NCBI GenBank assembly: GCA_965235115.1
Contig: OZ249436.1
Location: 34,846,001-34,910,000 of the forward strand
Length of the DNA stretch: 64,000 nucleotides
Direction: 5' to 3'
Origin: Laetmonice hystrix
Lineage: Eukaryota
The notes below the pieces were generated by a model. The model was not told the DNA's origin, searched no databases, and saw only the letters and a list, made by a program, of their open reading frames with translations. The position numbers and the translations under genes are program-made. Position 1 is the stretch's first letter. Each line of letters starts with the position of its first letter. Below, in pieces: positions 9,048 through 53,855 of the stretch.

Positions 9048-10362
9048 ATGGCAGACTTGTTCTACTACCCCTACCTGGCAACGCCTAGGGCTGAGTGTCC
9101 AGGTACAGTATGAATTTGGAAACAGGGCCTAAGGGTGACTTTAACGTAAGGACCGAGCCTATAGATAGGTTAGGGCTCTATATAGCTAGCCTACGTGGCG
9201 TGTTACATCTTCCTCAGTCTGTTACCCCGTAAAGCTAGATGTATTTTTAATTATCTTCCAATATTATCTTACGTACAGGTGCAACCCCTGACAACCGGGT
9301 GCAGCGTCAGCTTTGCACTGAACCCCTCGCGAAGCGTCAAAGACGTAGCCGGACACATTTTACCTGCAGCGACATCGAGCGGCTGGAAGCGGCATTCACC
9401 CTTGACCCCTATCCCGACATCCATCTGAGGGAACTGCTCGCAGACGACATCGGCGTTTCAGAGACGAGGATACAGGTCAGTATAGTTTGACAACGTTCTG
9501 ACACCACAGCACATCTGGATCTAAGATTATAGTTTAGCGTTGTCCCTTAATGGTTTATACAATATAGACACATCATGAGCCGAATACTATACGAATAAAG
9601 AGCATAGATTCTATTTAATATCTGAAAATATTTGGTTGTTCCAGACCTGGTTCCAGAACAAGCGTCGCCGGAACAGAAGACAGTTCGGACACCGTACCAA
9701 GGCTGCACCTGTCGTTAGGCTGACTCCCGTCAGCGTCCCTCCCCCGAGAAGACGGAGCCGCGTCATCTCGCCCCAGACCAAGAGCTACATGGTCGTCAGG
9801 ACGTCAGACGGTGACGTAATGAACCACAACCACAGCGTCATCATCGACCTCAGCCTTAGGTGAGACAAACCAGATTGTCGATGGTAGATGGGACCTTGTC
9901 CTAGTAATAAAAACAGAATCATCCCTGCTGCTAAACCTAGGTCTATATCTACGCCATCTTTCCACCCTTTCCAGGCCTGCCTCCAGCGACTCCAGTGAGT
10001 CTCGTCACCCAGACGCCGACCGCCCTTTCTGGTCACCGTGGGCGACTCCCTCCAGGGCCAGCACACACACGAGGGAGCTCCGACAAACGTCCCCGATAGC
10101 GTCGCCCGAGACCACCTGCCAACAGAGTGACTCCATCCCTGAATCTCCCGGACTTTCACCGTTCGTCTTCAGTCCTAGGTCGTCCAGCCTCCTGGACCGC
10201 GCCAGTAGCGGCTTGAACCTCGTCTTCGTCTTCCCAGAGGTGACGTCACTGCCAGCAGACGAGGAGCTAGCAGCGGTCAAAGTTGAAGACGTTGAGGCAC
10301 CATCCCCGGGGTACGCGAGCTGTGACTCAGACTGTGGCAGTCCAATCAACGTCTGCGACTGA
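9048..10362 (+). CDS. Divergent PRD-class (Q50 paired-like) homeobox transcription factor, ~284 aa. Exons 9048-9102, 9279-9475, 9645-9859, 9975-10362
   Basis: Homeodomain QRRSRTHFTCSDIERLEAAFTLDPYPDIHLRELLADDIGVSETRIQ|TWFQNKRRRNRRQF has P26, W48, F49, Q50, N51, R53 and the PRD-class phase-0 intron between codons 46 and 47. All four exons join in frame (855 nt). AATAAA at ~10412 and ~10459. Confidence 0.9.
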
Positions 10363-10750
10363 GGAGCCGGACAGAAGTGATCCCGTCAAATAAGAACAAA
10401 GAAGAATTGTAAATAAAATAGATAATTATCAGACCTTATGTGTACAAAGAAGAATTGTAAATAAAATTGGTAATGATATCTATGACGTGACCCTACCGTA
10501 AAGCGACCTGATACGTCAGCCTACGGCCCGCTATCCTTGCCTGTCCCTTTTACCCCAGTCAGTTGTCAAAATGAGTTCGCATTGACTCCCGCACATGACC
10601 GCATCCGCAATATTTGGGTCCCAGGCAAATATAAACCGAGGGACGCCATGTCGACGAACCTTTCATGCTTTCATGATCCAAAAATAATATAATGAAAATG
10701 ATGTTGCACAGATCTCAACTCTTAGAAGAGCCTACCTTACCAAGCCGAGT

Positions 10751-20000: not shown

Positions 20001-23000
20001 AGCATTCGAAACATTCTGATCGCATTCGAGGAAAAATCGAAAAGGCAAGCCACTTTAAATCCTGCCAGAATGTCCCGAATGAGCCTCGAATGAGCCGGAA
20101 TGCACCTCGAATGCATCTCGATTGCTGCCGGAATCTATACTCGGGACATTCTAAGTACATTCGAAGTACATTCCAAGTATTTCAACTGCATTCTGTTTAA
20201 ATTCTTGGACGTTCGAACCATATTCGGCTGCCATTCTGGGAGCGTTCTGACTGCATTCGAGGTGAATTCGTACAGCATTCGAGGCACCTTCCAACTAGAC
20301 TTCGGGCGGTATTTGGACAGCAATCGAACCGCACTCGTACGGCATTCGAGGTGCATTCTAAATATTCTGACTGCATTCTAACAACATTCTAAATATTCCT
20401 ACTGTGTTCCAACTACATTCGAGCTGCATTGGAGAGCTAATACACCCAGAATGTGCAAGAATCATTCGAGGCGGGTTCGAAGCGCATTCTAAGTATTCGA
20501 ACGGCATTCTTACAAAGCTGTAAGAATTTTGGTCAATTTGAAATTTGCTCCCGAATGTGGCGCGAATTTTGAGTATTCTTCATTCCGGCTGGTTCTGCTT
20601 GATTCCTGCTGATTCCGAATAAGTGTGACGGGGGTATTACTGACCTAACGTATTGACCTAACCCATTTGTTACAGAGCCCATCGTCTGTTACTGACCTAA
20701 CGTAATGAACTAACCCATGTCTATCTCATGTCACAGAGCCCATCGTGTCTGTTACTGACCTAACGTATTGACCTAACCCATGTCTATCTCATGTTACAGA
20801 GCCCATCGTGTCTGTTACTGACCTAACGTATTGACCTAACCCATGTCTATCTCATGTCACAGAGCCCATCGTGTCTGTTACTGACCTAACCTATTGACCT
20901 AACCCATGTCCATCTCATGTTACAGAGCCCATCGTGTCTGTTACTGACCTAACCTATTGACCTAACCCATGTCTATCTCATGTCACAGAGCCGATCGTGT
21001 CTATTACTGACCTAACGTATTGAACTAACCCATGTCCATCTCATGCTACAGAGCCCATCGTGTCTGTTACTGACCTAACGTATTGACCTAACCCATGTCT
21101 ATCTCATGTTACAGAGCCCATCGTGTCTGTTACTGACCTAACGTATTGAACGAACTCATGTCTATCTCATGCTACAGAGCCGATCGTGTCTATTACTGAC
21201 CTAACGTATTGACCTAACCCATGTCCATCTCATGTCACAGAGCCCATCGTGTCTGTTACTGACCTAACGTATTGACCTAACCCATGTCTATCTCATGTTA
21301 CAGAGCCCATCGTGTCTGTTACTGACCTAACGTATTGACCTAACCCATGTCTATCTCATGTCATAAAGCCCATCGTGTCTGTTACTGACCTAACGTATTG
21401 AACTAACCCATGTCTATCTCATGTTACAGAGCCCATCGTGTCTGTTACTGACCTAACGTATTGACCTAACCCATGTCTATCTCATGTTACAGAGCCGATC
21501 GTGTCTATTACTGACCTAACGTATTGAACTAACCTTTGTCTATCTCATGTTACAGAGCCCATCGTGTCTGTTACTGACCTAACGTATTGAACTAACCCAT
21601 GTCTATCTCATGTTACAGAGCCCATCGTGTCTGTTACTGACCTAACGTATTGACCTAACCCATGTCTATCTCATGTTACAGAGCCCATCGTGTCTGTTAC
21701 TGACCTAACGTATTGACCTAACCCATGTCTATCTCATGTTACAGAGCCCATCGTGTCTGTTACTGACCTAACGTATTGACCTAACCCATGTCTATCTCAT
21801 GTTACAGAGCCCATCGTGTCTGTTACTGACCTAACGTATTGACCTAACCCATGTCTATCTCATGTCACAGAGCCCATCGTGTCTGTTACTGACCTAACCT
21901 ATTGACCTAACCCATGTCTATCTCATGTCATAAAGCCCATCGTGTCTGTTACTGACCTAACGTATTGACCTAACCCATGTCTATCTCATGTTACAGAGCC
22001 CATCGTGTCTGTTACTGACCTAACGTATTGACCTAACCCATGTCTATCTCATGTCATAAAGCCCATCGTGTCTGTTACTGACCTAACGTATTGACCTAAC
22101 CCATGTCTATCTCATGTTACAGAGCCCATCGTGTCTGTTACTGACCTAACGTATTGACCTAACCCATGTCTATCTCATGTCATAAAGCCCATCGTGTCTG
22201 TTACTGACCTAACGTATTGATGACCTAACCCATGTCTATCTCATGTTACAGAGCCCATCGTCTGTTACTGACCTAACGTATTGACCTAACCCATGTCTAT
22301 CTCATGTCATAAAGCCCATCGTGTCTGTTACTGACCTAACGTATTGAACGAACCCATGCCCTTCTCATATTATAGAACCGATATGGTCCGTGTACGACCC
22401 GGGGACTCGCCTAGCGAGGATTCTGTTTAATGATTACATGGCCGACATCATCCCGAACTGTACCAACGAACTTGTCCGAGTGAAGGTGGGCATGGCACTC
22501 CGGGGAATCCTCGATGTGGTACGTATATCTACGTCAAAGGTCTACGTCATTTACGTCATGACGTCATTTCTGGTGTTAGCCTCCCAAAAAGTAAAACATA
22601 TGGGGGACTTTTAGGAGGAGACTATTATTATTCAATGGCAAGTTTGGGTGGGGTTCTCTGCCTGAGAACCTTATTCGCCAATGGTATTCACTGCTGCAGA
22701 ATGATCGACATTGATATCAATATCTATCCCGTGCTTTTAGCGGTAAAATTAATATTGGTGAGAAATCCAAGGTATTGATATTATATAAGTCTGATCGTAA
22801 ATTTATGGACATTATTATGGCCCCATGCTTCAAGTCATAAAGACGTAGGATGACTAGAGAAGTGCGTTACTCGACTGAAATTGCGTTTGCTGTGTTCCCT
22901 GCCCTTGCATTACCAGCTAATAAAGGAATATAGGTTATCTGGTTGATAACTGTCAAGGAGCGAGCTAAATGAGAAGACTGTGCGGGCTGCGATAAGTGAG

Positions 23001-26000
23001 AGTTTACATTGGATGTTGCCATCCTGAATAAACATCCGCATAAAGACAGCATACAGTAATACAGGCGACTTCTAGAGACTAGCAGCACGAAATGACCACC
23101 AGTGATGACGTGAACATCAATATCATGGCCCCTGAATAATTTTGATTTGTCTGAAACTTTTATTGACATATTTTTGCACACACAACCGAGCGGAGGAGAC
23201 GCAGGGAAGGAAGCGGAAAGAGACAGGCAAAAAGAAGGTGGTTGAAGAGTGTTTAAATGATCTCGTGCTATGTCAACCGATGTTTTGAAGTTATCAAATA
23301 CATCCCTGTCAGGACAGACATTAATGTTTGCCTACATGGTGAAATATAAACCTGTAGCAGGCCTCGAGTAGAACGCTCACTCCGACCGTTGTCGTGGCGC
23401 TTTCAGCCATGGCGGTATCATGTAACAACTTCCGGTAAATTCAAGACTGCGGCACACTTTAACAGTGCCCACCTATCTGTTCAATATCAGATCGAAGTTG
23501 ACATGCACACCAAAAGACAAACGCCACATTTACGTCCCAGAATATAGAAGGCCTAGGTATAAAAGATATGCATGTAGGCATACTGACAGTAAAGTATTAT
23601 GTAGTGCGTAGAATGTCATCTAAACCAAACACTGTTTGCTCATCTCTGCTATAGCTATACGCGTGTGACGAACGTTTCTATAACATAGTCTCCCCATGAG
23701 TTTGTGAGCACGTGAACGTGAAGCACATTAAGCGTGCCATAAAGCTATCATAATTTTAACAACGTAGCAGAACAGACATATATAACCTCGCGGTACGAAA
23801 GTGTAAGGATAGAAGGTTTTGGAATCAGGATATCTAATTTATTGCTCCATGGGTAGGCCACAGGCAACAGACCACATAGTGAGGCTATTCTTCAGGAGTG
23901 AAAGATTCTCATAATCGTATCACCCGTAATTGTAATCTATGGATTCACATTACTCGAAGATGGGCCCTCCAACTGGAGGAGTTAAAGTAATAATCTATAA
24001 TTTCTTCCTTCTTCCCCATCCCAGCCGTATTCGTAATCATCTGCATTTTAACTACGCCGCTGCTGGTCCCAACTTTAGTACAATATAAAGATTGCTTGTT
24101 GTCTGTCTGATATCATGAACAAATACATGCAGAGCAAACATTAGCGTTCCATTGATAACAAAAAGTTTATTGTACCACGGAAATTGGCGGAATATGATAT
24201 TGGTTCCTTCTTCGGGTGAAGAATCTATGTTCTATGTGTAACTGCTTTATTAGCCCGACTTCAACCAGACCAGCTTTAATATTGGATAACTCTCTGGCGA
24301 TAACTTGAGTACTCAATGGTTAATATGGGGCAATACATGACGTCGAGTCAACTAGAATTCCTCCTTGTGGATTGCAGTCATAAAGCCTTCGTATTTATAG
24401 ATATTGTTATTCTCTGCGTGGCACACATGGATTTCAATCCTTCCAGTACCATTTTTTCTCTCCGGTGTTCCGCAAATGGGTCATCAAAGGCTTTGAACTG
24501 TCCAGCTCTGTCTGTGCGACCGGGCATATAAAAGAACCCGTGCCATTTTTCGAGAAGGGTGGGGATTGCTACAGGTGACAGGATTCTTTCTCACTTCATC
24601 CTGGTCATCACCCACCCCTTGGGACCCGGGGTAAAATAGATCTTTAATAGCGAGAGAGGCCAAAATGCAGGATTGCTCCGCTTGGCGGAGGCAGGGCCTA
24701 TCCGCTCTACTGAGCGCCCTTTAGTTTTTATACTCTATACAAAGTGACAACCAATTGTTTTTCCAGGACGAGCCCAGCCAGATTGTGAAGGTTACAGTTT
24801 GGTTGCGTATGGTATGTAAGATTTAAGGAAGCTATAAAGCTCTCAACCCTCTGTGTAAATTTTCTCACATAGGCTGTTTTGTGATTCTGTATCTTTTAAA
24901 ACAAAATTCTAGATGTGTAAGAGATTAAAAACGTCATCAGCACGTAAGCTTTACTTACTGAGTACCGACTCCTTGTTCCCCCTTCCCTTACCCGTACCCG
25001 CCGGTGTGGACCCACAGGAGTGGATGGACTGTCGCCTGGCCTGGAACCAGACTGAACATTCACTGCCTCAACTGGTCGTCTCTAGTGATCGAATCTGGAT
25101 TCCAGACATAACCCTGTTTGACAGGTAGGCAACCTTGCGAGGTTAAACTTTTTGTGTGCATGCATTTGCTTACTGGCATTGGTCCTGAAATACGAGGTTC
25201 CCAATCTCCCAGTAAGTTTGGGGCGTTACTTCGAACCAATCTTGAGAATACTCCAACTGATGTATACTATATGGTATACATCTGTGCTTATAATCGATGC
25301 TTTAGTAAGCAGAGATTGTAAGTTACCTACGTAGTCTTCCAGTGAACTTATATATGTGCACTGCCACCTATAGTACATGTATATATTTAATATGTGTTTT
25401 AATGTGGTTAACAGCTCAAGCGTTAGGCCTATAACATAAGTTGACCAAAAGCAATGGAAAGTTCTTACCTAATTATAGTGACCTGCTTTAATGACTGTGC
25501 ATGCTCCAAGGACAGATATTGATCCCTATAGAAATAAACTCATTTTGTTGTCATTCTCTTTCGTTGAGCTCATTATTATTGACGGAGGTGTTAATTGTCA
25601 AAGGTAATTATTTATCCGTGCTACGGCACATGTTGCCTGTGTCACTGTAGATAGGATTATATGTGTACGTCTTCCTCCCATCAGGTATATAAGAAATAAT
25701 TACAGCTTGTCAAGATCACATTAAATGTAAACCCGTCCAGTAGTTATAACCTCTCCGTTTCTTGTTAATCACTATATTCTTTCTGACCAATACATCAAAG
25801 CCGCTGCTATCTATAAGATTATAATTAATAGTCAAGCATGGAGACAATTATGTCCTATCAAGTTGAGACATTGTAAAACCCGATTGACGTTTATCCATAT
25901 ACCGTAAAGGGCATGAATAACAATTCCTACCCATAACCTATCGCTGATTGTCATGTTTCCACAGTTCATATGTAGTATCCAAAATTAAACATTTCTCTAG

Positions 26001-29000
26001 CAGAGGAAACAGGGACTTGCACAGGCAGAAAAAGCATGAGTCAGCCTTAGAGTCCAACAGACATCAAAATTTACATGAAATTTAGTGCCAGATCCTGATG
26101 GAACATGTAATTTGTTGTTGTTAAAACTTAAAGGAGCGGTTATTGTACAAGAATATGAACTGTGTGTAAGCCGTTTTACAGACCAATTCCCCTAGTGACG
26201 TCATCAGGGGCAATGGTAAAGAATAGGCAGGAGTGAGACTGTGATGAGGCGCGAGATTCGAATTTTCAATATTTTTCTAAATTGAGAGGACTTCTCAGAA
26301 AACCTATCAGGGATACGGCTACAACTCAAAGTGATCTATCTAGATCAGTAAAGTTACCTATGTGATGTCAGTTGCACTTTAACCCATGGTACAATCTTTC
26401 TATAGATTTTCAAGACCCTTTATGCTTTTAGGAAGGAAAATCAAATTGGAACTTTTCAATAGTTTTACAATGTGTCCCTTGAAGTCACGCTGTCTATAGT
26501 TCACCAGAAACTTTGCTAAGTAAGTGTACAAATACAAAACCATTTTTTTAAATTTAGGCACAAATGGCAGAACTTGCATGGTTAGGCCTACAATACAAGT
26601 TCGGTACAATATTTACCGACTTAAATGTGGCGTGTTCCAGTCGCTGGCGATTAACATCGCCTATATGGGCATAAAGCACACAACTCTTCATTTCTTTCTT
26701 TCATTTCTTACTCTACCGTCCACGCTATATTCTAACACAACCTCCCTTGCAACCTTGCTGCTATGCACCTTTACTCAGCAAGCTTCCGGTGAACAACACA
26801 TGCATGCACTACTCAACAATAGCCTGTGCAGGGGAAAATAATTGTAAAGTCCGCCATTCAGGAATTAGAATATGCCTACTTGCCTACACATGATTTTGTG
26901 TAAATAAACCGTGTAGGCCTATCTTCATGATTAGTGGATATCATATGGCGAAGGTAATTCTTGAGTGCATCATGTGCTCGAGGCGGAGCAGAGGCGTGAC
27001 CGACTCATGCAATATTTGCATTAGTTCGTTACTGCCCTTAATTGAATAACGAGTAGGCCTATTCTAAAGAAACTTGGTGTCGGACTTTGAGTTTGTATGC
27101 TGACAGGTACCCATGTGTGGGTTTCCCTCTGATATAGCAGCACAGGTCAAGGATTGGAAGGAGTAGGACACTACTGCCCGATCATCTATCCCAGCGGCAA
27201 GGTTTTCTTCATGGCACCCGCCATCATAGACTTCTCCTGTAAGCTAGATGTCACCTACTTTCCTTACGACCGTCAGCGATGTCGAATAAAGGTTGGTTGC
27301 AGTGACGTAGGCCTAGCTACAAGCCCCCTACTTAGACTACTGTTTCAGCGTCTCGGACTTTTCTATAATGCCTACCATCCGGTACCAAACACTTAAACTT
27401 CTTTAAACTTAGGCTACCCAGCTGTTTATTAAATCACAGTTTCAATAAATGTTATGTGTAGACCTAGTCTAGGGCCTACTATAGGCCTATAGGCCTACCA
27501 ATATCTGAAATGTAACGGCTTTCCGTCCAATCTGGAGACATGTAGGCCGTAATTTGAGGTATGCCTATAGGCCAAATATGCCTATAGGCCTACATGTTAG
27601 ATGAACACAAATTAGGCCTCATAATGTGTCTGATAATTCACGCTTCAGTTCGCGTCCTGGTCACATGACGGTCACGAGATGGACGTCACAAACCGCTCTG
27701 CCGCCGGCGACACGTCCGTGTTTGTTGACAACGGCGAATGGAACCTTCTGGGCGTCCCCGTACGACGTAACGTCGTCTACTACCCGTGCTGTGACGAGCC
27801 CTACCCTGACGTCACATTCTATCTCGTTATCCAGCGCCAGTTCCTCTATTACTTCTTCAACCTGGTCATGCCGTGCGCCCTGATCAGCGGCATTGCCCTC
27901 CTCGTGTTCTGTCTGCCTCCAGAGTCAGGCGAGAAGATTTCACTAGGCATCACCGTCCTCCTCTCGCTCTGCGTCTTCCTGCTCATGGTGTCAGAGCGCA
28001 TGCCCGCCACCTCGGAGACAATTCCTCTTATTGGTAAGGTCACATGTTCCTTTGTCGCTTTGGCATCAATGTAGGCCCAATTCATGAATATCACAGGGGC
28101 ATCAATGTAGGCCCAATTCATGAATATTACAGCCCAAAGTTTTGGACCTAAATTTCTCTCTAGCTGGCGCATGGCTCAGAGGTCCATGATATTTCAAAAA
28201 GCATCCCAAATTGTGGACCTGTCTTTCCTATATGCCTCCCAAATTCCGGACCTTTTGGGGTTGTCAAAATTTAAGGGGGGGGGGGCAATGCTCCATGATA
28301 AGTACGGCTTTGTATTGGCCTAGGCTAGTAGGCCTAATACGCCCAAGTTAGCTACTTTCAGGAGCGACGTAACCGTAAATTTCTATTGCCTATGATAGAC
28401 TCTACGTGCCTTTTTGTTCTTGTCAGCGCGGTACTTTGCGGCGACCATCGTGCTAGCGTCAGTTTCCTGTGGTATGACGGTGATTGCCCTGAACGTCCGT
28501 CACCGTGGTGCAGCAGACCAGACGGTGCCGTCTTGGGTCCGAACTGTTGTCATCCGGGGACTGGGCAAGCTCCTCTGTATTGGCCCCAGCAAGGTATAAC
28601 TGCTTTCTTCAACACTTTCTGAATAATTGATAGTGTATTTAGGTAAAGGGCATTTAGCCATGACCTCTTGGGATTGGGGCATTTGGGGCCTAAAGATCTT
28701 AAACAACAGTGTTTGTCACTGACTGGGTATAAGGAAGATCTGCCTATAGAATTAAAAAAACAAACACACACAAAAACAGTGGCGTGTAGGTTAGGCGTAT
28801 AATAAAGTTGGACTTGCTATTGTTCTGCAGGCAGACCCTCACAACAATGACGACGAGCCCCACGTCCTGAACCCGCTCCTCTCTCCGCCTCTCGCCATTA
28901 ACTGCAACGACAAGACAGACGGGCGACCGGCCCACACAGACGTCCCAGCTTCTGGAAACAGCCGCGTCGAGGCGCTGATGGAGGAAGCCGTTCGTCTGCT

Positions 29001-29217
29001 CCGCGGGATCGCGCAGCGTTTCAAGGAACAGGACAGGAAGGAGAACGTCTCAAACGAATGGAGGACAGTGGCCATGGTTCTCGACCGGCTTTTCTTCTTC
29101 ATCGCCACCATTTTGGTGGTGGTTGTGACAGTGGCCATACTGACTGCATCGCCAGATCCGGAAGACTGGCAGGACCTGTCCTGGGCAGACAATGTACAAA
29201 TCAACACCCATCAATGA
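13388..29217 (+). CDS. Nicotinic acetylcholine receptor alpha-type subunit (alpha7/9/10-like, cation-selective), ~482 aa. Exons 13388-13448, 22376-22518, 24767-24811, 25018-25124, 27138-27291, 27649-28033, 28427-28593, 28831-29217
   Basis: Signal-peptide exon MKMASCGTGFLITCLLLMTA (least certain exon). Typical 45-nt DEPSQIVKVTVWLRM exon, WIPDITL, Cys-loop CKLDVTYFPYDRQRC, loop B FASWSHDG, loop C YYPCCDEPY with vicinal Cys, PPESGEKISLGITVLLS (TM2), EWRTVAMVLDRLFF (TM4). Exons sum to 1449 nt in frame. Confidence 0.93.
16978..17104. repeat. (CT)n microsatellite
   Basis: Long, slightly interrupted CT run. Confidence 0.95.
19330..19622. repeat. Minisatellite, ~40-46-bp unit, ~7 copies
   Basis: Repeated tacaggggcctactgcacaatatc(a/t)atcctggtagg... 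Confidence 0.9.
19728..20636. mobile_element. PIF/Harbinger-like non-autonomous element in nAChR intron 1
   Basis: TIRs TACCCTAGTCACACT / AGTGTGACGGGGGTA. 3-bp TSD TTA at 19725-19727 and 20637-20639. Interior built of gcattc/cgaatg subrepeats. Confidence 0.75.
20637..22394 (+). repeat. 63-bp tandem array (~27 copies) whose last unit is the functional acceptor of nAChR exon 2
   Basis: Unit gttactgacctaacgtattgacctaacccatgtctatctcatgttacagagcccatcgtgtct. The terminal unit reads ...cccttctcatattatag|AACCGATATGGTCCGTGTAC. Confidence 0.95.
24471..24560 (+). mobile_element. SINE central-domain remnant (Meta-SINE-like)
   Basis: tcatcaaaggc...ctgtctgtgcgaccgggcatataaaagaacccgtgcc...gagaaggg resembles the GCATATAAAAGA(T/A)CCC core of invertebrate SINEs. 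Recalled similarity, not searched. Confidence 0.35.
28062..28131. repeat. 36-bp tandem duplication in nAChR intron 6
   Basis: ggcatcaatgtaggcccaattcatgaatat(c/t)acag occurs twice in tandem. Confidence 0.85.
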
Positions 29218-34308: not shown

Positions 34309-35009
34309 CTTGAAACACAGGCAGAGATTAAAGCGCGCAGTATATAAATAGGACACGATATGGTTCAGGGACCGGACTGTTTGAAAACGTGCACCCAGTC
34401 ACTAAAAAAATCATATTTCTTACTGTGATCGGCGGACTTTGTTTCTGAAAGGGACTAAACATTTCTGCCATTCAGGCCTTCAGAGCCCCCCCCCAATAAA
34501 AATTGATTATCTTGTTTACTTTCAAGTGCATTTATTTCAATGATCGACGAGGAGACGCTTTTTGGAGCACTCGGTCAAGAATATTGGAATGGGTACCCAC
34601 TCCAATATTCTTGAATCGGTCACCAAGTTACTAAGTAACGCCTACCTAAAATTCATGTTGCCCTTCTATCACTAGTCTCTAACTATAGCTATGTGTCATA
34701 TATGTGCTAATTATATGTTATCAAAGCCCTCTTCTAACAGAAGACCTCATTTTATTAGGCCTACCTTGCAATGCCAATGGTGGTTCTTGCTTTTATTTCT
34801 CCATAATATGACATCTAATTAAACTATGTGCAATATTTTACAGCGGGAAGCTAAGAACCATCAATAGTTATCTAAAATTTCTAAAAGTCTAAAGGGCGTT
34901 CTCTGAATGTGAAGAAAATAAATGATAAAAGTAGACATCTATTCCTCCTTTCACTTCCGTCGCTTTCTTGTTTGTTGATATTTCAGTCGCGCGAATGAGA
35001 TTATTCAAT
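34309..35009. promoter_or_regulatory. Bidirectional promoter region between MRPL54 and AFG2B
   Basis: Start codons diverge ~700 bp apart. Both sit in YY1-like AA(G/T)ATGGCTGC contexts. ETS-like CACTTCCG at ~34952. Confidence 0.6.
34576..34613. mobile_element. 38-bp near-perfect palindrome, probable transposon footprint
   Basis: CAAGAATATTGGAATGGGT|ACCCACTCCAATATTCTTG (one mismatch), flanked by ACTCGGT / AATCGGT. Confidence 0.55.
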
Positions 35010-39693
<4,684 letters not shown>

Positions 39694-48338: not shown

Positions 48339-48695
48339 CCATATGTATAGGCTATTGGACGAGGCAGAAGCAGCCTAGCGCCTTCAAGACATCGTTTTGT
48401 GTTTTGTCCCAGTACCAATCAATGTTCTATAATTACGTTTGGGACACACTCCAAGTCCCATATCCCTCTGACCGGCGGATCCAAACGGTTTGGGAGATAC
48501 TAGAATCCGCATCTGTCTGAGACCCTTAGCAGGTGGTCATGCCTACAGAGAGATGTGTCTGTACCTCTGCGGATTGAAGACCAAACTCTGCAAGGGAGTT
48601 GAATTAAATAAAGTGCTATTTCATAGATTTCCCGCAGGGGTTGATCCGTGCTAGGAATCGTTTTTTTAAAAGTGGCATTACACCCCTACCTGGCC

Positions 48696-51470
48696 GATGT
48701 CTGTGTATCGGACCCACAAATTGTAATGTCCGCTTTTGATATAGGATGTCTGTGTATCGGACCCACAGATTGTAATGACCTCTCAAAATGTGATGTCTGT
48801 GTATCGGGCCTACAGATTGTAATGACCTCCCGCGACAGGATGTCTGTGTATCGGTCCTCCAGATTCTATAATGTGATGTTGTGTATCGGTCCTACAGATT
48901 ATAATGTGCTGTCTGTGTATCGGTCCCACAGATTATAATGTGCTGTCTGTGTATCGGTCCCACAGATTATAATGTGATGTCTGTGTATCGGTCCCACAGA
49001 TTATAATGTGATGTCTGTGTATCGGTCCCACAGATTATAATGTGATGTCTGTGTATCGGTCCCACAGATTATAATGTGATGTCTGTGTATCGGTCCCACA
49101 GATTATAATGTGATGTCTGTGTATCGGTCACTACAGATTATAATGTGATGTCTGTGTATCGGTCCCACAGATTATAATGTGATGTCTGTGTATCGGTCCC
49201 ACAGATTATAATGTGATGTCTGTGTATCGGTCCCACAGATTATAATGTGATGTCTGTGTATCGGTCCCACAGATTATAATGTGATGTCTGTGTATCGGTC
49301 CCACAGATTATAATGTGATGTCTGTGTATCGGTCCCACAGATTATAATGTGATGTCTGTGTATCGGTCCCACAGATTATAATGTGATGTCTGTGTATCGG
49401 TCCCACAGATTATAATGTGATGTCTGTGTATCGGTCACTACAGATTATAATGTGATGTCTGTGTATCGGTCACTACAGATTATAATGTGATGTCTGTGTA
49501 TCGGTCACTACAGATTATAATGTGATGTCTGTGTATCGGTCACTACAGATTATAATGTGATGTCTGTGTATCGGTCACTACAGATTATAATGTGATGTCT
49601 GTGTATCGGTCACTACAGATTATAATGTGATGTCTGTGTATCGGTCCCACAGATTATAATGTGATGTCTGTGTATCGGTCCCACAGATTATAATGTGATG
49701 TCTGTGTATCGGTCACTACAGATTATAATGTGATGTCTGTGTATCGGTCACTACAGCTTATAATGTGATGTCTGTGTATCGGTCACTACAGATTATAATG
49801 TGATGTCTGTGTATCGGTCCCACAGATTATAATGTGATGTCTGTGTATCGGTCCCACAGATTATAATGTGATGTCTGTGTATCGGTCCCACAGATTATAA
49901 TGTGATGTCTGTGTATCGGTCCCACAGATTATAATGTGATGTCTGTGTATCGGTCCCACAGATTATAATGTGATGTCTGTGTATCGGTCCCACAGATTAT
50001 AATGTGATGTCTGTGTATCGGTCCCACAGATTATAATGTGATGTCTGTGTATCGGTCCCACAGATTATAATGTGATGTCTGTGTATCGGTCCCACAGATT
50101 ATAATGTGATGTCTGTGTATCGGTCCCACAGATTATAATGTGATGTCTGTGTATCGGTCCCACAGATTATAATGTGATGTCTGTGTATCGGTCCCACAGA
50201 TTATAATGTGATGTCTGTGTATCGGTCCCACAGATTATAATGTGATGTCTGTGTATCGGTCCCACAGATTATAATGTGATGTCTGTGTATCGGTCACTAC
50301 AGATTATAATGTGATGTCTGTGTATCGGTCACTACAGATTATAATGTGATGTCTGTGTATCGGTCACTACAGATTATAATGTGATGTCTGTGTATCGGTC
50401 ACTACAGATTATAATGTGATGTCTGTGTATCGGTCACTACAGATTATAATGTGATGTCTGTGTATCGGTCACTACAGATTATAATGTGATGTCTGTGTAT
50501 CGGTCCCACAGATTATAATGTGATGTCTGTGTATCGGTCCCACAGATTATAATGTGATGTCTGTGTATCGGTCACTACAGATTATAATGTGATGTCTGTG
50601 TATCGGTCACTACAGATTATAATGTGATGTCTGTGTATCGGTCACTACAGATTATAATGTGATGTCTGTGTATCGTTCCCACAGATTATAATGTGATGTC
50701 TGTGTATCGGTCCCACAGATTATAATGTGATGTCTGTGTATCGGTCACTACAGATTATAATGTGATGTCTGTGTATCGGTCACTACAGATTATAATGTGA
50801 TGTCTGTGTATCGGTCACTACAGATTATAATGTGATGTCTGTGTATCGGTCACTACAGATTATAATGTGATGTCTGTGTATCGGTCACTACAGATTATAA
50901 TGTGATGTCTGTGTATCGGTCACTACAGATTATAATGTGATGTCTGTGTATCGGTCACTACAGATTATAATGTGATGTCTGTGTATCGGTCCCACAGATT
51001 ATAATGTGATGTCTGTGTATCGGTCCCACAGATTATAATGTGATGTCTGTGTATCGGTCACTACAGATTATAATGTGATGTCTGTGTATCGGTCCCACAG
51101 ATTATAATGTGATGTCTGTGTATCGGTCCCACAGATTATAATGTGATGTCTGTGTATCGGTCCCACAGATTATAATGTGATGTCTGTGTATCGGTCCCAC
51201 AGATTATAATGTGATGTCTGTGTATCGGTCACTACAGATTATAATGTAATGTCTGTGTATCGGTCACTACAGATTATAATGTGATGTCTGTGTATCGGTC
51301 ACTACAGATTATAATGTGATGTCTGTGTATCGGTCACTACAGATTATAATGTGATGTCTGTGTATCGGTCCCACAGATTATAATGTGATGTCTGTGTATC
51401 GGTCACTACAGATTATAATGTGATATTTGTGGATCGGTTCTACATATTATAATGTGATGTGATGTATCTG
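48696..51470. repeat. Satellite array, 34/35-bp unit (~75 copies), preceded by a few longer degenerate units
   Basis: Unit gatgtctgtgtatcggt(cc/cact)acagattataatgt. Confidence 0.97.
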
Positions 51471-51479
51471 GACCCACAC

Positions 51480-53632
51480 TGAGATTGTAATGACCTCCCG
51501 TGATAGGATGTGTGTGTATCGGGTCCACAGATTGTAATGACCTCCCGTGACGGGATGAGTGTGTATCGGGTCCACAGATTGTAATGACCTCCCGTGATAT
51601 AGGATGAGTGTGTATCGGGTCCACAGATTGTAATGACCTCCCGTGATAGGATGTGTGTGTATCGGGTCCACAGATTGTAATGACCTCCCGTGACGGGATG
51701 AGTGTGTATCGGGTCCACAGATTGTAATGACCTCCCGTGATAGGATGTGTGTGTATCGGGTCCACAGATTGTAATGACCTCCCGTGATGGGATGAGTGTG
51801 TATCGGGTCCACAGATTGTAATGACCTCCCGTGATAGGATGTGTGTGTATCGGGTCCACAGATTGTAATGACCTCCCGTGACGGGATGAGTGTGTATCGG
51901 GTCCACAGATTGTAATGACCTCCCGTGATATAGGATGAGTGTGTATCGGGTCCACAGATTGTAATGACCTCCCGTGATATAGGATGAGTGTGTATCGGGT
52001 CCACAGATTGTAATGACCTCCCGTGATATAGGATGAGTGTGTATCGGGTCCACAGATTGTAATGACCTCCCGTGATGGGATGAGTGTGTATCGGGTCCAC
52101 AGATTGTAATGACCTCCCGTGATATAGGATGAGTGTGTATCGGGTCCACAGATTGTAATGACCTCCCGTGATAGGATGAGTGTGTATCGGGTCCACAGAT
52201 TGTAATGACCTCCCGTGATGGGATGAGTGTGTATCGGGTCCACAGATTGTAATGACCTCCCGTGATGGGATGAGTGTGTATCGGGTCCACAGATTGTAAT
52301 GACCTCCCGTGATATAGGATGAGTGTGTATCGGGTCCACAGATTGTAATGACCTCCCGTGATAGGATGAGTGTGTATCGGGTCCACAGATTGTAATGACC
52401 TCCCGTGATATAGGATGAGTGTGTATCGGGTCCACAGATTGTAATGACCTCCCGTGATATAGGATGAGTGTGTATCGGGTCCACAGATTGTAATGACCTC
52501 CCGTGATATAGGATGAGTGTGTATCGGGTCCACAGATTGTAATGACCTCCCGTGATAGGATGAGTGTGTATCGGGTCCACAGATTGTAATGACCTCCCGT
52601 GACGGGATGAGTGTGTATCGGGTCCACAGATTGTAATGACCTCCCGTGATAGGATGAGTGTGTATCGGGTCCACAGATTGTAATGACCTCCCGTGATATA
52701 GGATGAGTGTGTATCGGGTCCACAGATTGTAATGACCTCCCGTGATGGGATGAGTGTGTATCGGGTCCACAGATTGTAATGACCTCCCGTGATAGGATGA
52801 GTGTGTATCGGGTCCACAGATTGTAATGACCTCCCGTGACGGGATGAGTGTGTATCGGGTCCACAGATTGTAATGACCTCCCGTGATGGGATGAGTGTGT
52901 ATCGGGTCCACAGATTGTAATGACCTCCCGTGACGGGATGAGTGTGTATCGGGTCCACAGATTGTAATGACCTCCCGTGATGGGATGAGTGTGTATCGGG
53001 TCCACAGATTGTAATGACCTCCCGTGATGGGATGAGTGTGTATCGGGTCCACAGATTGTAATGACCTCCCGTGATGGGATGAGTGTGTATCGGGTCCACA
53101 GATTGTAATGACCTCCCGTGATAGGATGAGTGTGTATCGGGTCCACAGATTGTAATGACCTCCCGTAATGAGTGTGTATCGGGTCCACAGATTGTAATGA
53201 CCTCCCGTGATAGGATGAGTGTGTATCAGGTCCACAGATTGTAATGACCTCCCGTGATATAGGATGAGTGTGTATCGGGTCCACAGATTGTAATGACCTC
53301 CCGTGACGGGATGAGTGTGTATCGGACCCACAGATTGTAATGACCTCCCGTGATATAGGATGAGTGTGTATCGGGTCCACAGATTGTAATGACCTCCCGT
53401 GATGGGATGATTGTGTATCGGGTCCACAGATTGTAATGACCTCCCGTGATGAGTGTGTATCGGGTCCACAGATTGTAATGACCTCCCGTGATATAGGATG
53501 AGTGTGTATCGGGTCCACAGATTGTAATGACCTCCCGTGATAGGATGATTGTGTATCGGGTCCACAGATTGTAATGACCTCCCGTGATGGGATGAGTGTG
53601 TATCGGGTCCACAGATTGTAATGACCTCCCCG
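51480..53632. repeat. Satellite array, 47/49-bp unit (~45 copies), related to the 34-bp array
   Basis: Unit cagattgtaatgacctcccgtga(ta/tata/tg/cg)ggatgagtgtgtatcgggtcca. Confidence 0.97.
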
Positions 53633-53855
53633 AAAGAGTTGTCTAATTCCTCTCGGGTTTCCCACCGATCCCAACTGCCGTTTCGATGGCGCTGTTATAG
53701 GTCCACGTCCTATGGACGGTACAGGTTCAATATCCTATAGATGTGTTAATCGTTCCGCGACGTGGCTCGTCGTCTTTATTAGTTTGTCCTTCATGTCATG
53801 CCTGACTGGTTTCAGCCGCGGCATATAGGATTAACGTAAAATGGACCTTTGTGAC

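Follow-up and report, generated by a model that had tools for sequence, protein, structure and literature searches.

A homeobox gene lies on the forward (+) strand of the window, that is, of the whole 64-kb stretch of DNA that was analysed, at positions 9048-10362, and no further homeobox was found in these 64 kb. Spliced from the DNA, it comprises four exons separated by introns of 176, 169 and 115 bp, all bounded by GT..AG, and the 855-bp frame is predicted to encode a protein of 284 amino acids with no internal stop, so that the intact, compact four-exon gene described by the first-pass annotation stands. The contrast in GC content between coding sequence (0.60; GC3 0.69) and introns (0.39) argues that this is not a chance frame. 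The features of the gene are as follows:

9048..9102, + strand: exon 1, with the ATG, 18 codons and one base; eh1-like motif absent by motif scan
9279..9475, + strand: exon 2, coding for the linker and the first 46 homeodomain residues (homeobox from 9338)
9476..9644, + strand: intron 2 (phase 0), splitting the homeodomain after residue 46
9645..9859, + strand: exon 3, recognition helix, then a basic/Pro-rich tail
9645-9647 (T47), 9654-9656 (Q50), 9660-9662 (K52) and 9666-9668 (R54), + strand: recognition-helix codons in exon 3
9654..9656 (place 9655), + strand: codon 50, Gln in the window and Arg in contigs from 2/3 covering runs
9840..9854, + strand: degenerate PxDLS-like motif, residues 150-154, exon 3
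9975..10362, + strand: exon 4, Ser/Pro-rich acidic tail, then the stop
10345..10359, + strand: C-terminal I-N-V-x-D motif, common to the query and Owenia CAH1785182.1
10412..10465, + strand: two AATAAA (10412 and 10460), candidate poly(A) signals in the 3' region of the homeobox gene, doubled by a short direct duplication (10395-10470)

Translation likely starts at 9048; two further in-frame ATGs lie upstream (8844 and 8961), and an eh1-like motif was not seen by eye in either of the corresponding extensions. Exon 2 matches the Pfam family PF00046 (E 2.3e-9), whereas exons 3 and 4 gave no Pfam match and exon 4 gave no usable match in the ESM Atlas. Among the neighbouring genes, Pfam confirms those for a ligand-gated channel, a mitochondrial ribosomal protein and an AAA ATPase. 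Exons of the nicotinic-type channel (PF02931, PF02932) span 22348-29214 on the + strand, and the mitochondrial ribosomal protein gene (PF08561, - strand) stands apparently head to head with the AAA ATPase gene (+ strand) at 34398-35471, the latter having a first exon of 1.5 kb. A long tandem repeat array at 48600-53734, in which frames on the - strand run for 590-760 codons without a stop, is likely a minisatellite rather than a gene. The label Sema1a, formerly attached to the left neighbour, found no confirmation, as the last exon of that gene has no Pfam match.

The homeodomain occupies protein residues 39-98 and carries R5, F8, D12, L16, Y25, P26, T47, W48, F49, Q50, N51, K52, R53, R54 and R55, which confirms by homeodomain numbering the D12, T47, K52 and R54 read at first pass. 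Its assignment to the PRD class likewise holds, the top matches in the PDB being DUX4, Paired, Aristaless and CRX; every high-scoring homeodomain match among the matches listed is PRD-type. Interruption of the homeodomain by an intron after residue 46 is a PRD-type feature; the query gene has an intron there, and the predicted proteins of its relatives likewise break at that point. Membership of Pax was rejected on Q50 rather than S50 and on a stretch of just 38 residues ahead of the homeodomain.

Relatives were sought with phmmer using exon 2, which returned 1,654 proteins at E 0.001 (the best 150 of 1,654 were used), and with a profile search from 8 rows, which gave 66 further matches among 8,000 candidates; the matches were ranked against the whole homeodomain (60 residues). 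A word-index search with exon 2, which yielded 76 candidates, had no match at E 0.001, and a scan of metagenome contigs for a related locus gave 597 pattern matches, of which 0 were confirmed. The top full-length row among the matches listed is Owenia CAH1785182.1 (38/60 identical); homeodomain identity is 36-37/60 for Haliotis (three species), 34/60 for both P0043 and Lamellibrachia LSAT2_001385, and 33/58 for Lottia 100384 and 100387. The partial protein P0014 is the closest over residues 1-46 among the matches listed (32/46). Identity to the query amounts to 33 residues for Asterias XP_071804438.1, 31 for Saccoglossus XP_006819543.1, 28-31/60 for Mix/Bix rows and at most 32 for canonical rows. 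Lottia 100387 is PRD-V C1, and PRD-V as drawn in the same work also takes in Spirobranchus comp110811 (PRD-VIII), Aprd4 and Aprd6 (PMC6118893 supplement). The query has the group-typical residues R15, I28, V40, R55 and R58. A predicted model of a Haliotis relative suggests three helices, with low confidence elsewhere, and carries no weight in the reading of the query. Two candidate affiliations were set aside: Lopx, at ~17/60 to Lingula Lopx by eye, and the 'prop1' of PMC12550047, for which no tie to the PRD-V-type group was established.

Profiles were built alike for six groups, with canonical labels set by eye against the PMC6118893 supplement, and a leave-one-out control placed 40/40 members correctly. 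The query scored 122.9 bits with the spiralian profile (a set gathered by query-seeded searches), 90.1 with the ambulacrarian pair, 86.4 with the canonical families, 84.0 with Dux, 51.0 with Mix/Bix and 37.7 with Sebox. The tree was built from 60 columns and 49/80 rows, with 31 near-redundant or long rows dropped and without PRD-V A/B and Aprd rows. It placed the query with P0014 (81/85) inside an unstarred 27-row group (87/83), which holds all spiralian rows of PRD-V type together with the Asterias/Saccoglossus pair; 10 canonical rows stood apart from this group (95/84), and none of the starred branches contained the query. In the homeodomain phylogeny proposed as a check, the query groups weakly with the spiralian PRD-V type; AU tests rejected neither its placement with Mix/Bix (p 0.13) nor that with canonical families (p 0.23).

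On homeodomain sequence, the nearest named group is PRD-V C / PRD-VIII / amphioxus Aprd4 and Aprd6. Since a named group exists (123 bits against at most 90; best identity 38/60), the description of the gene as an orphan finds no support, and the lead towards Mix fares no better (28-31/60; 51 against 123 bits), the 'Mix-like' H29 being present also in P0043 and in several partial spiralian-type rows. The view of a non-canonical PRD gene, similar in kind to the novel ones of spiralians, is upheld.

Among the nine full-length spiralian rows, T47 occurs in 1/9, K52 in 1/9 (Owenia) and D12 in 1/9 (Lamellibrachia), so that the weight once placed on these three, each recurring among relatives, finds no support; residue 54 is S in 9/9 and R in the query, in keeping with the view that R54 is unusual. 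Inspection by eye of the alignment in the PMC6118893 supplement shows T47 in 5/17 PRD-V rows, K52 in Aprd4 and 3/3 PRD-VI rows, and R54 in 8/8 Lopx rows, with T47 and R54 together in Lingula Lopx. The 106 distinct homeodomains among the matches listed in the first search include 11 with T47, 9 with K52, 10 with R54 and 3 with R50. Within the PRD-V-type group, as far as the compared sequences go, R54 alone is private to the query.

Outside the homeodomain, alignment of the tails with 9 spiralian relatives was not significant (shuffle p 0.10-0.46), and among the 17 proteins of the tail shuffle test in all, Asterias alone reached p 0.014. By motif definitions set after inspection of the sequences, the degenerate DLS motif of the query, which we take to be CtBP-type, is matched by a full PLDLS in the Owenia and Gigantopelta relatives; of 220 proteins, Owenia alone ends like the query (I-N-V-x-D), and I-[DN]-V stands close to the C terminus in Haliotis, Gigantopelta and P0043, compared with 2/116 other proteins. 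A 7/8 residue match to Gigantopelta just past the DLS motif was discarded (E 0.18; tail alignment p 0.30). A reading of the C-terminal motif as presumably WDR5-type was also given up, the query having N for D and the matches listed offering no homeobox support. The eh1-like N-terminal motif is present in several relatives and absent from the query. Apart from these, an N-terminal SGYE[ST]D is common to the PRD-VIII-like proteins P0162, P0174, P0049, P0056, P0059, P0060, P0062, P0067 and P0076 and occurs in 0/116 other long proteins; it is possibly diagnostic of the weakly supported PRD-VIII-like clade.

A separate contig (runs X1-X3), which represents a paralog located elsewhere than in the window, matches homeodomain residues 22-52 almost exactly, corresponding to 9400-9477 and 9642-9662 of the window, and diverges on both sides; it has a different intron at the same site (after residue 46). 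This paralog was built by joining two loose ends, an inferred join across which the same three diagnostic bases recur in X1 and X3. As read by eye from the joined contig, it carries A12, T47, Q50, K52, S54 and R55. Over residues 12-46 it agrees with the outgroup P0014 at 30/35 positions (by eye) against 25/35 for the query, and the changes are one-sided towards the query (5:0, p 0.06; 6:0 counting residue 54, p 0.03); of the duplicated pair, the query is likely the copy that has diverged faster. The D12 of the query looks convergent with the Lamellibrachia/PRD-VIII type, because both the paralog and P0014 carry A12. Silent differences between query and paralog fall in 8/10 codons of the flanks and 1/29 of the centre among the rows listed (p 6e-6, or 7e-4 if four further table rows all lie in the centre, both inflated by the centre having been picked for being alignable). 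This pattern resembles gene conversion confined to the homeobox exons, of the kind described as centred on the homeobox for TPRX1/2 (PMC8208926), and T47 and K52 may then be shared with the paralog through conversion; R54 lies just outside the putative tract. With 0.2 changes per site, the probability that an unselected open frame would have lasted over the divergence of the two copies is 0.005, and the long silent divergence suggests that the query has long survived under selection.

Four runs of one sample, none of them recorded as RNA, cover the stretch, and their contigs contain a second version of the gene, which is either an allele or a collapsed, near-identical young copy. It differs from the window at 9 coding positions (6 amino-acid-changing and 3 silent), and neither a gap nor a stop occurs in the contigs that cover it. 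Four of the 6 amino-acid-changing variants lie outside the homeodomain; the two within it are T43A, found in 3/3 covering runs, and Q50R. Judging by the paralog and P0014, A43 is the ancestral state, and R54 is present in both versions. The coding variants give a per-site ratio of ~0.63, at which strong constraint (an omega of 0.1) is rejected (p 0.008) and neutrality is not, with amino-acid-changing variants at 0.009 per site against 0.011 per site for intron variants.

Studies of other homeodomains offer a guide to what these residues may do. Residues 47, 50 and 54 are the main determinants of the 3' half-site, and base 4 covaries with 47 and 54 (PMC3460184). In LEUTX, the change I47T left binding in place and compensated for a bulky residue 54 (PMC6258689). 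In the Q50 background of the reconstructed Bicoid ancestor, m54R alone raised the affinity for both motifs with the preference unchanged; Q50K and M54R are the two large-effect changes of Bicoid, and together they left caudal translation unrepressed in vivo (PMC6177261). Taken together, the results for T47 in LEUTX and for m54R and Q50K in the Bicoid ancestor suggest a factor that binds DNA at a TAAT-like core with tuned affinity, and the encoded protein is likely a DNA-binding transcription factor. According to this scheme, R5, N51 and R53 would read the TAAT-like core and Q50 would retain the usual 3' preference; T47 is predicted to be permissive for binding, and the private S54R would be expected to increase affinity and might shift which base is read at position 4. 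The N-terminal eh1-like motif would have been lost and the degenerate DLS and C-terminal I-N-V retained, so cofactors might be recruited via the tail motifs, a role as a weak repressor being a guess. The sister copy would retain the ancestral helix (S54, R55), and the query copy, its Q50R variant included, would be under loosened or shifting selection. The odd residues alone give no ground for RNA binding: that earlier proposal leaned on R54, which is common in Lopx and insufficient in reconstructed Bicoid.

As regards timing, oyster PRD4 (clade V) is expressed from egg to blastula and oyster PRD5, also of clade V, is expressed late (PMC5322547); the early phb genes have undergone duplication several times (PMC4709884), and the Spirobranchus PRD-VIII sequence came from adult regeneration. 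By analogy, the query factor probably acts in the early embryo. In sum, we favour, at a probability of roughly 0.65, a diverging duplicate of the PRD-V-type lineage that likely encodes a DNA-binding factor, probably of the early embryo, under loosened constraint.

The foremost, though unlikely, competitor is a redundant duplicate whose function was lost not long ago and which has begun to decay, with R54, T43 and Q50R as drift and the paralog doing the work. The near-equal density of amino-acid-changing and intron variants, the variant at residue 50, the loss of the eh1-like motif and the one-sided divergence from the paralog would all fit such decay. Against it, the window preserves an intact frame, splice sites and C-terminal motif, the contigs are free of gaps and stops, and the long silent divergence from the paralog indicates long survival under selection; moreover, 4/6 changes lie outside the homeodomain, 9 variants carry little power, and fast-evolving embryo PRD genes naturally have R50 or T47 (PMC6258689). 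Slightly less probable again is that the gene is an orphan, or a derived member of Mix/Bix, Dux, Sebox or a canonical family, and that it resembles PRD-V through long-branch convergence. The AU tests leave room for this, the alignment has just 60 columns, and PRD-V is without monophyletic support in Paps et al. 2015 (PMC5322547), which warns of possible long-branch attraction in PRD-V-type clades; yet the identity ranking, the profiles with their 40/40 control, residues R15, I28, V40, R55 and R58 and the C-terminal motif all agree on the PRD-V-type group, to which P0014 and the paralog bridge the query.

Less probable than either of these is a Bicoid-like innovation in which R54 has been gained and a basic residue 50 is arising, with new DNA specificity and possibly RNA binding or translational control. 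R54 is indeed found in both versions and in 0/9 full-length spiralian relatives, the R50/R54 version parallels the two large-effect changes behind the K50/R54 of Bicoid (PMC6177261), and residues 47, 50 and 54 are the very ones that govern the 3' half-site (PMC3460184). The in vivo failure of Q50K with M54R to repress caudal translation (PMC6177261) tells against it, as does the wide occurrence of R54 (8/8 Lopx rows; 10/106 homeodomains among the matches listed), for which the portions of the literature covered report no RNA binding in the Lopx or search homeodomains, and R50 is known at contig level in one sample. The Bicoid signature of K50 with R54 is not what was found, R54 being accompanied by Q50 (window) or R50 (second version). 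A narrower form, in which a duplicate from an ancient, rapidly evolving PRD lineage of the early embryo (spiralian PRD-V C/VIII, possibly one family with amphioxus Aprd and echinoderm phb) has R54 fixed and Q50/R50 segregating, so that the alleles read different DNA sites and R50/R54 might bind RNA, is a long shot of the same order. The Q50R variant makes a possible altered DNA preference more interesting.

Change in early spiralian development has been attributed to lineage-restricted PRD and TALE genes, and PRD-V/VIII genes are barely characterised. A literature search, which covered few subscription papers, did not find this gene or S54R/Q50R in the PRD-V group. As it stands, the gene extends an already described group by another fast-evolving member; new here are the S54 sister paralog, nearer the outgroup, and the second allele or copy with Q50R. 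The locus supplies a pair of paralogs whose divergence is one-sided, with signs of exon-limited gene conversion, and its natural S54/R54 and Q50/R50 states provide a three-way test of a homeodomain specificity shift after duplication.

Among known systems, PRD-V subgroup C (Lottia PRD-V C1-3; PMC5322547, PMC6118893) shares with the query Q50 and the lack of a paired box. The unclassified Owenia CAH1785182.1, Haliotis XP_071083769.1 and Gigantopelta proteins are likened to it, identity of the query with the group running from 33/58 to 38/60, and the likeness extends to R15, I28, V40, R55 and R58, to K52 in Owenia, and to the DLS and C-terminal I-[DN]-V; S54 and V47 are typical of the subgroup, whereas the query has R54, T47, no eh1-like motif and the Q50R variant. 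The Spirobranchus PRD-VIII / Aprd6 type, including Lamellibrachia LSAT2_001385, is 33-34/60 identical to the query and shares D12, and Spirobranchus PRD-VIII has PLDL after the homeodomain, like the DLS region of the query; this type differs by K55 and the N-terminal SGYE[ST]D, the query having R55 and lacking that motif. Bicoid resembles the query in being duplicate-derived and in R54, with a basic residue 50 in one query version, but it has a fixed K50 and a proven RNA target, whereas the query is of PRD class, has Q50 in the window and is known from sequence alone. Bicoid derives from Hox3/zen and belongs to the ANTP class. Lopx shares R54, and Lingula Lopx T47 with R54, in the published alignment, but has a YPN rather than a YPD loop, in addition to the low identity of its Lingula member (~17/60 by eye). 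The mammalian ETCHbox genes (LEUTX, ARGFX, TPRX1/2) show a comparable turnover of PRD paralogs, T47/R50 states and homeobox conversion (PMC6258689, PMC8208926), but they arose independently from CRX and offer an analogy only.

The echinoderm phb/pmar1/pplx and hemichordate phb-like genes, as fast-evolving, duplicated early-embryo PRD genes, provide a comparison in the manner of working; eh1 comes and goes among them and residue 50 varies, with H50 and no eh1 in Pplx (PMC4709884). The Asterias (P0088) and Saccoglossus (P0116) proteins have N-terminal eh1-like motifs and group weakly in the tree with spiralian PRD-V C/VIII (87/83), hinting at one bilaterian family with phb. A link between PRD-V and phb may have been discussed already by Yamazaki et al. 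in 2020 and Morino et al. in 2017. If the weak grouping of the Asterias and Saccoglossus proteins is true, an early-embryo PRD family would span Bilateria.
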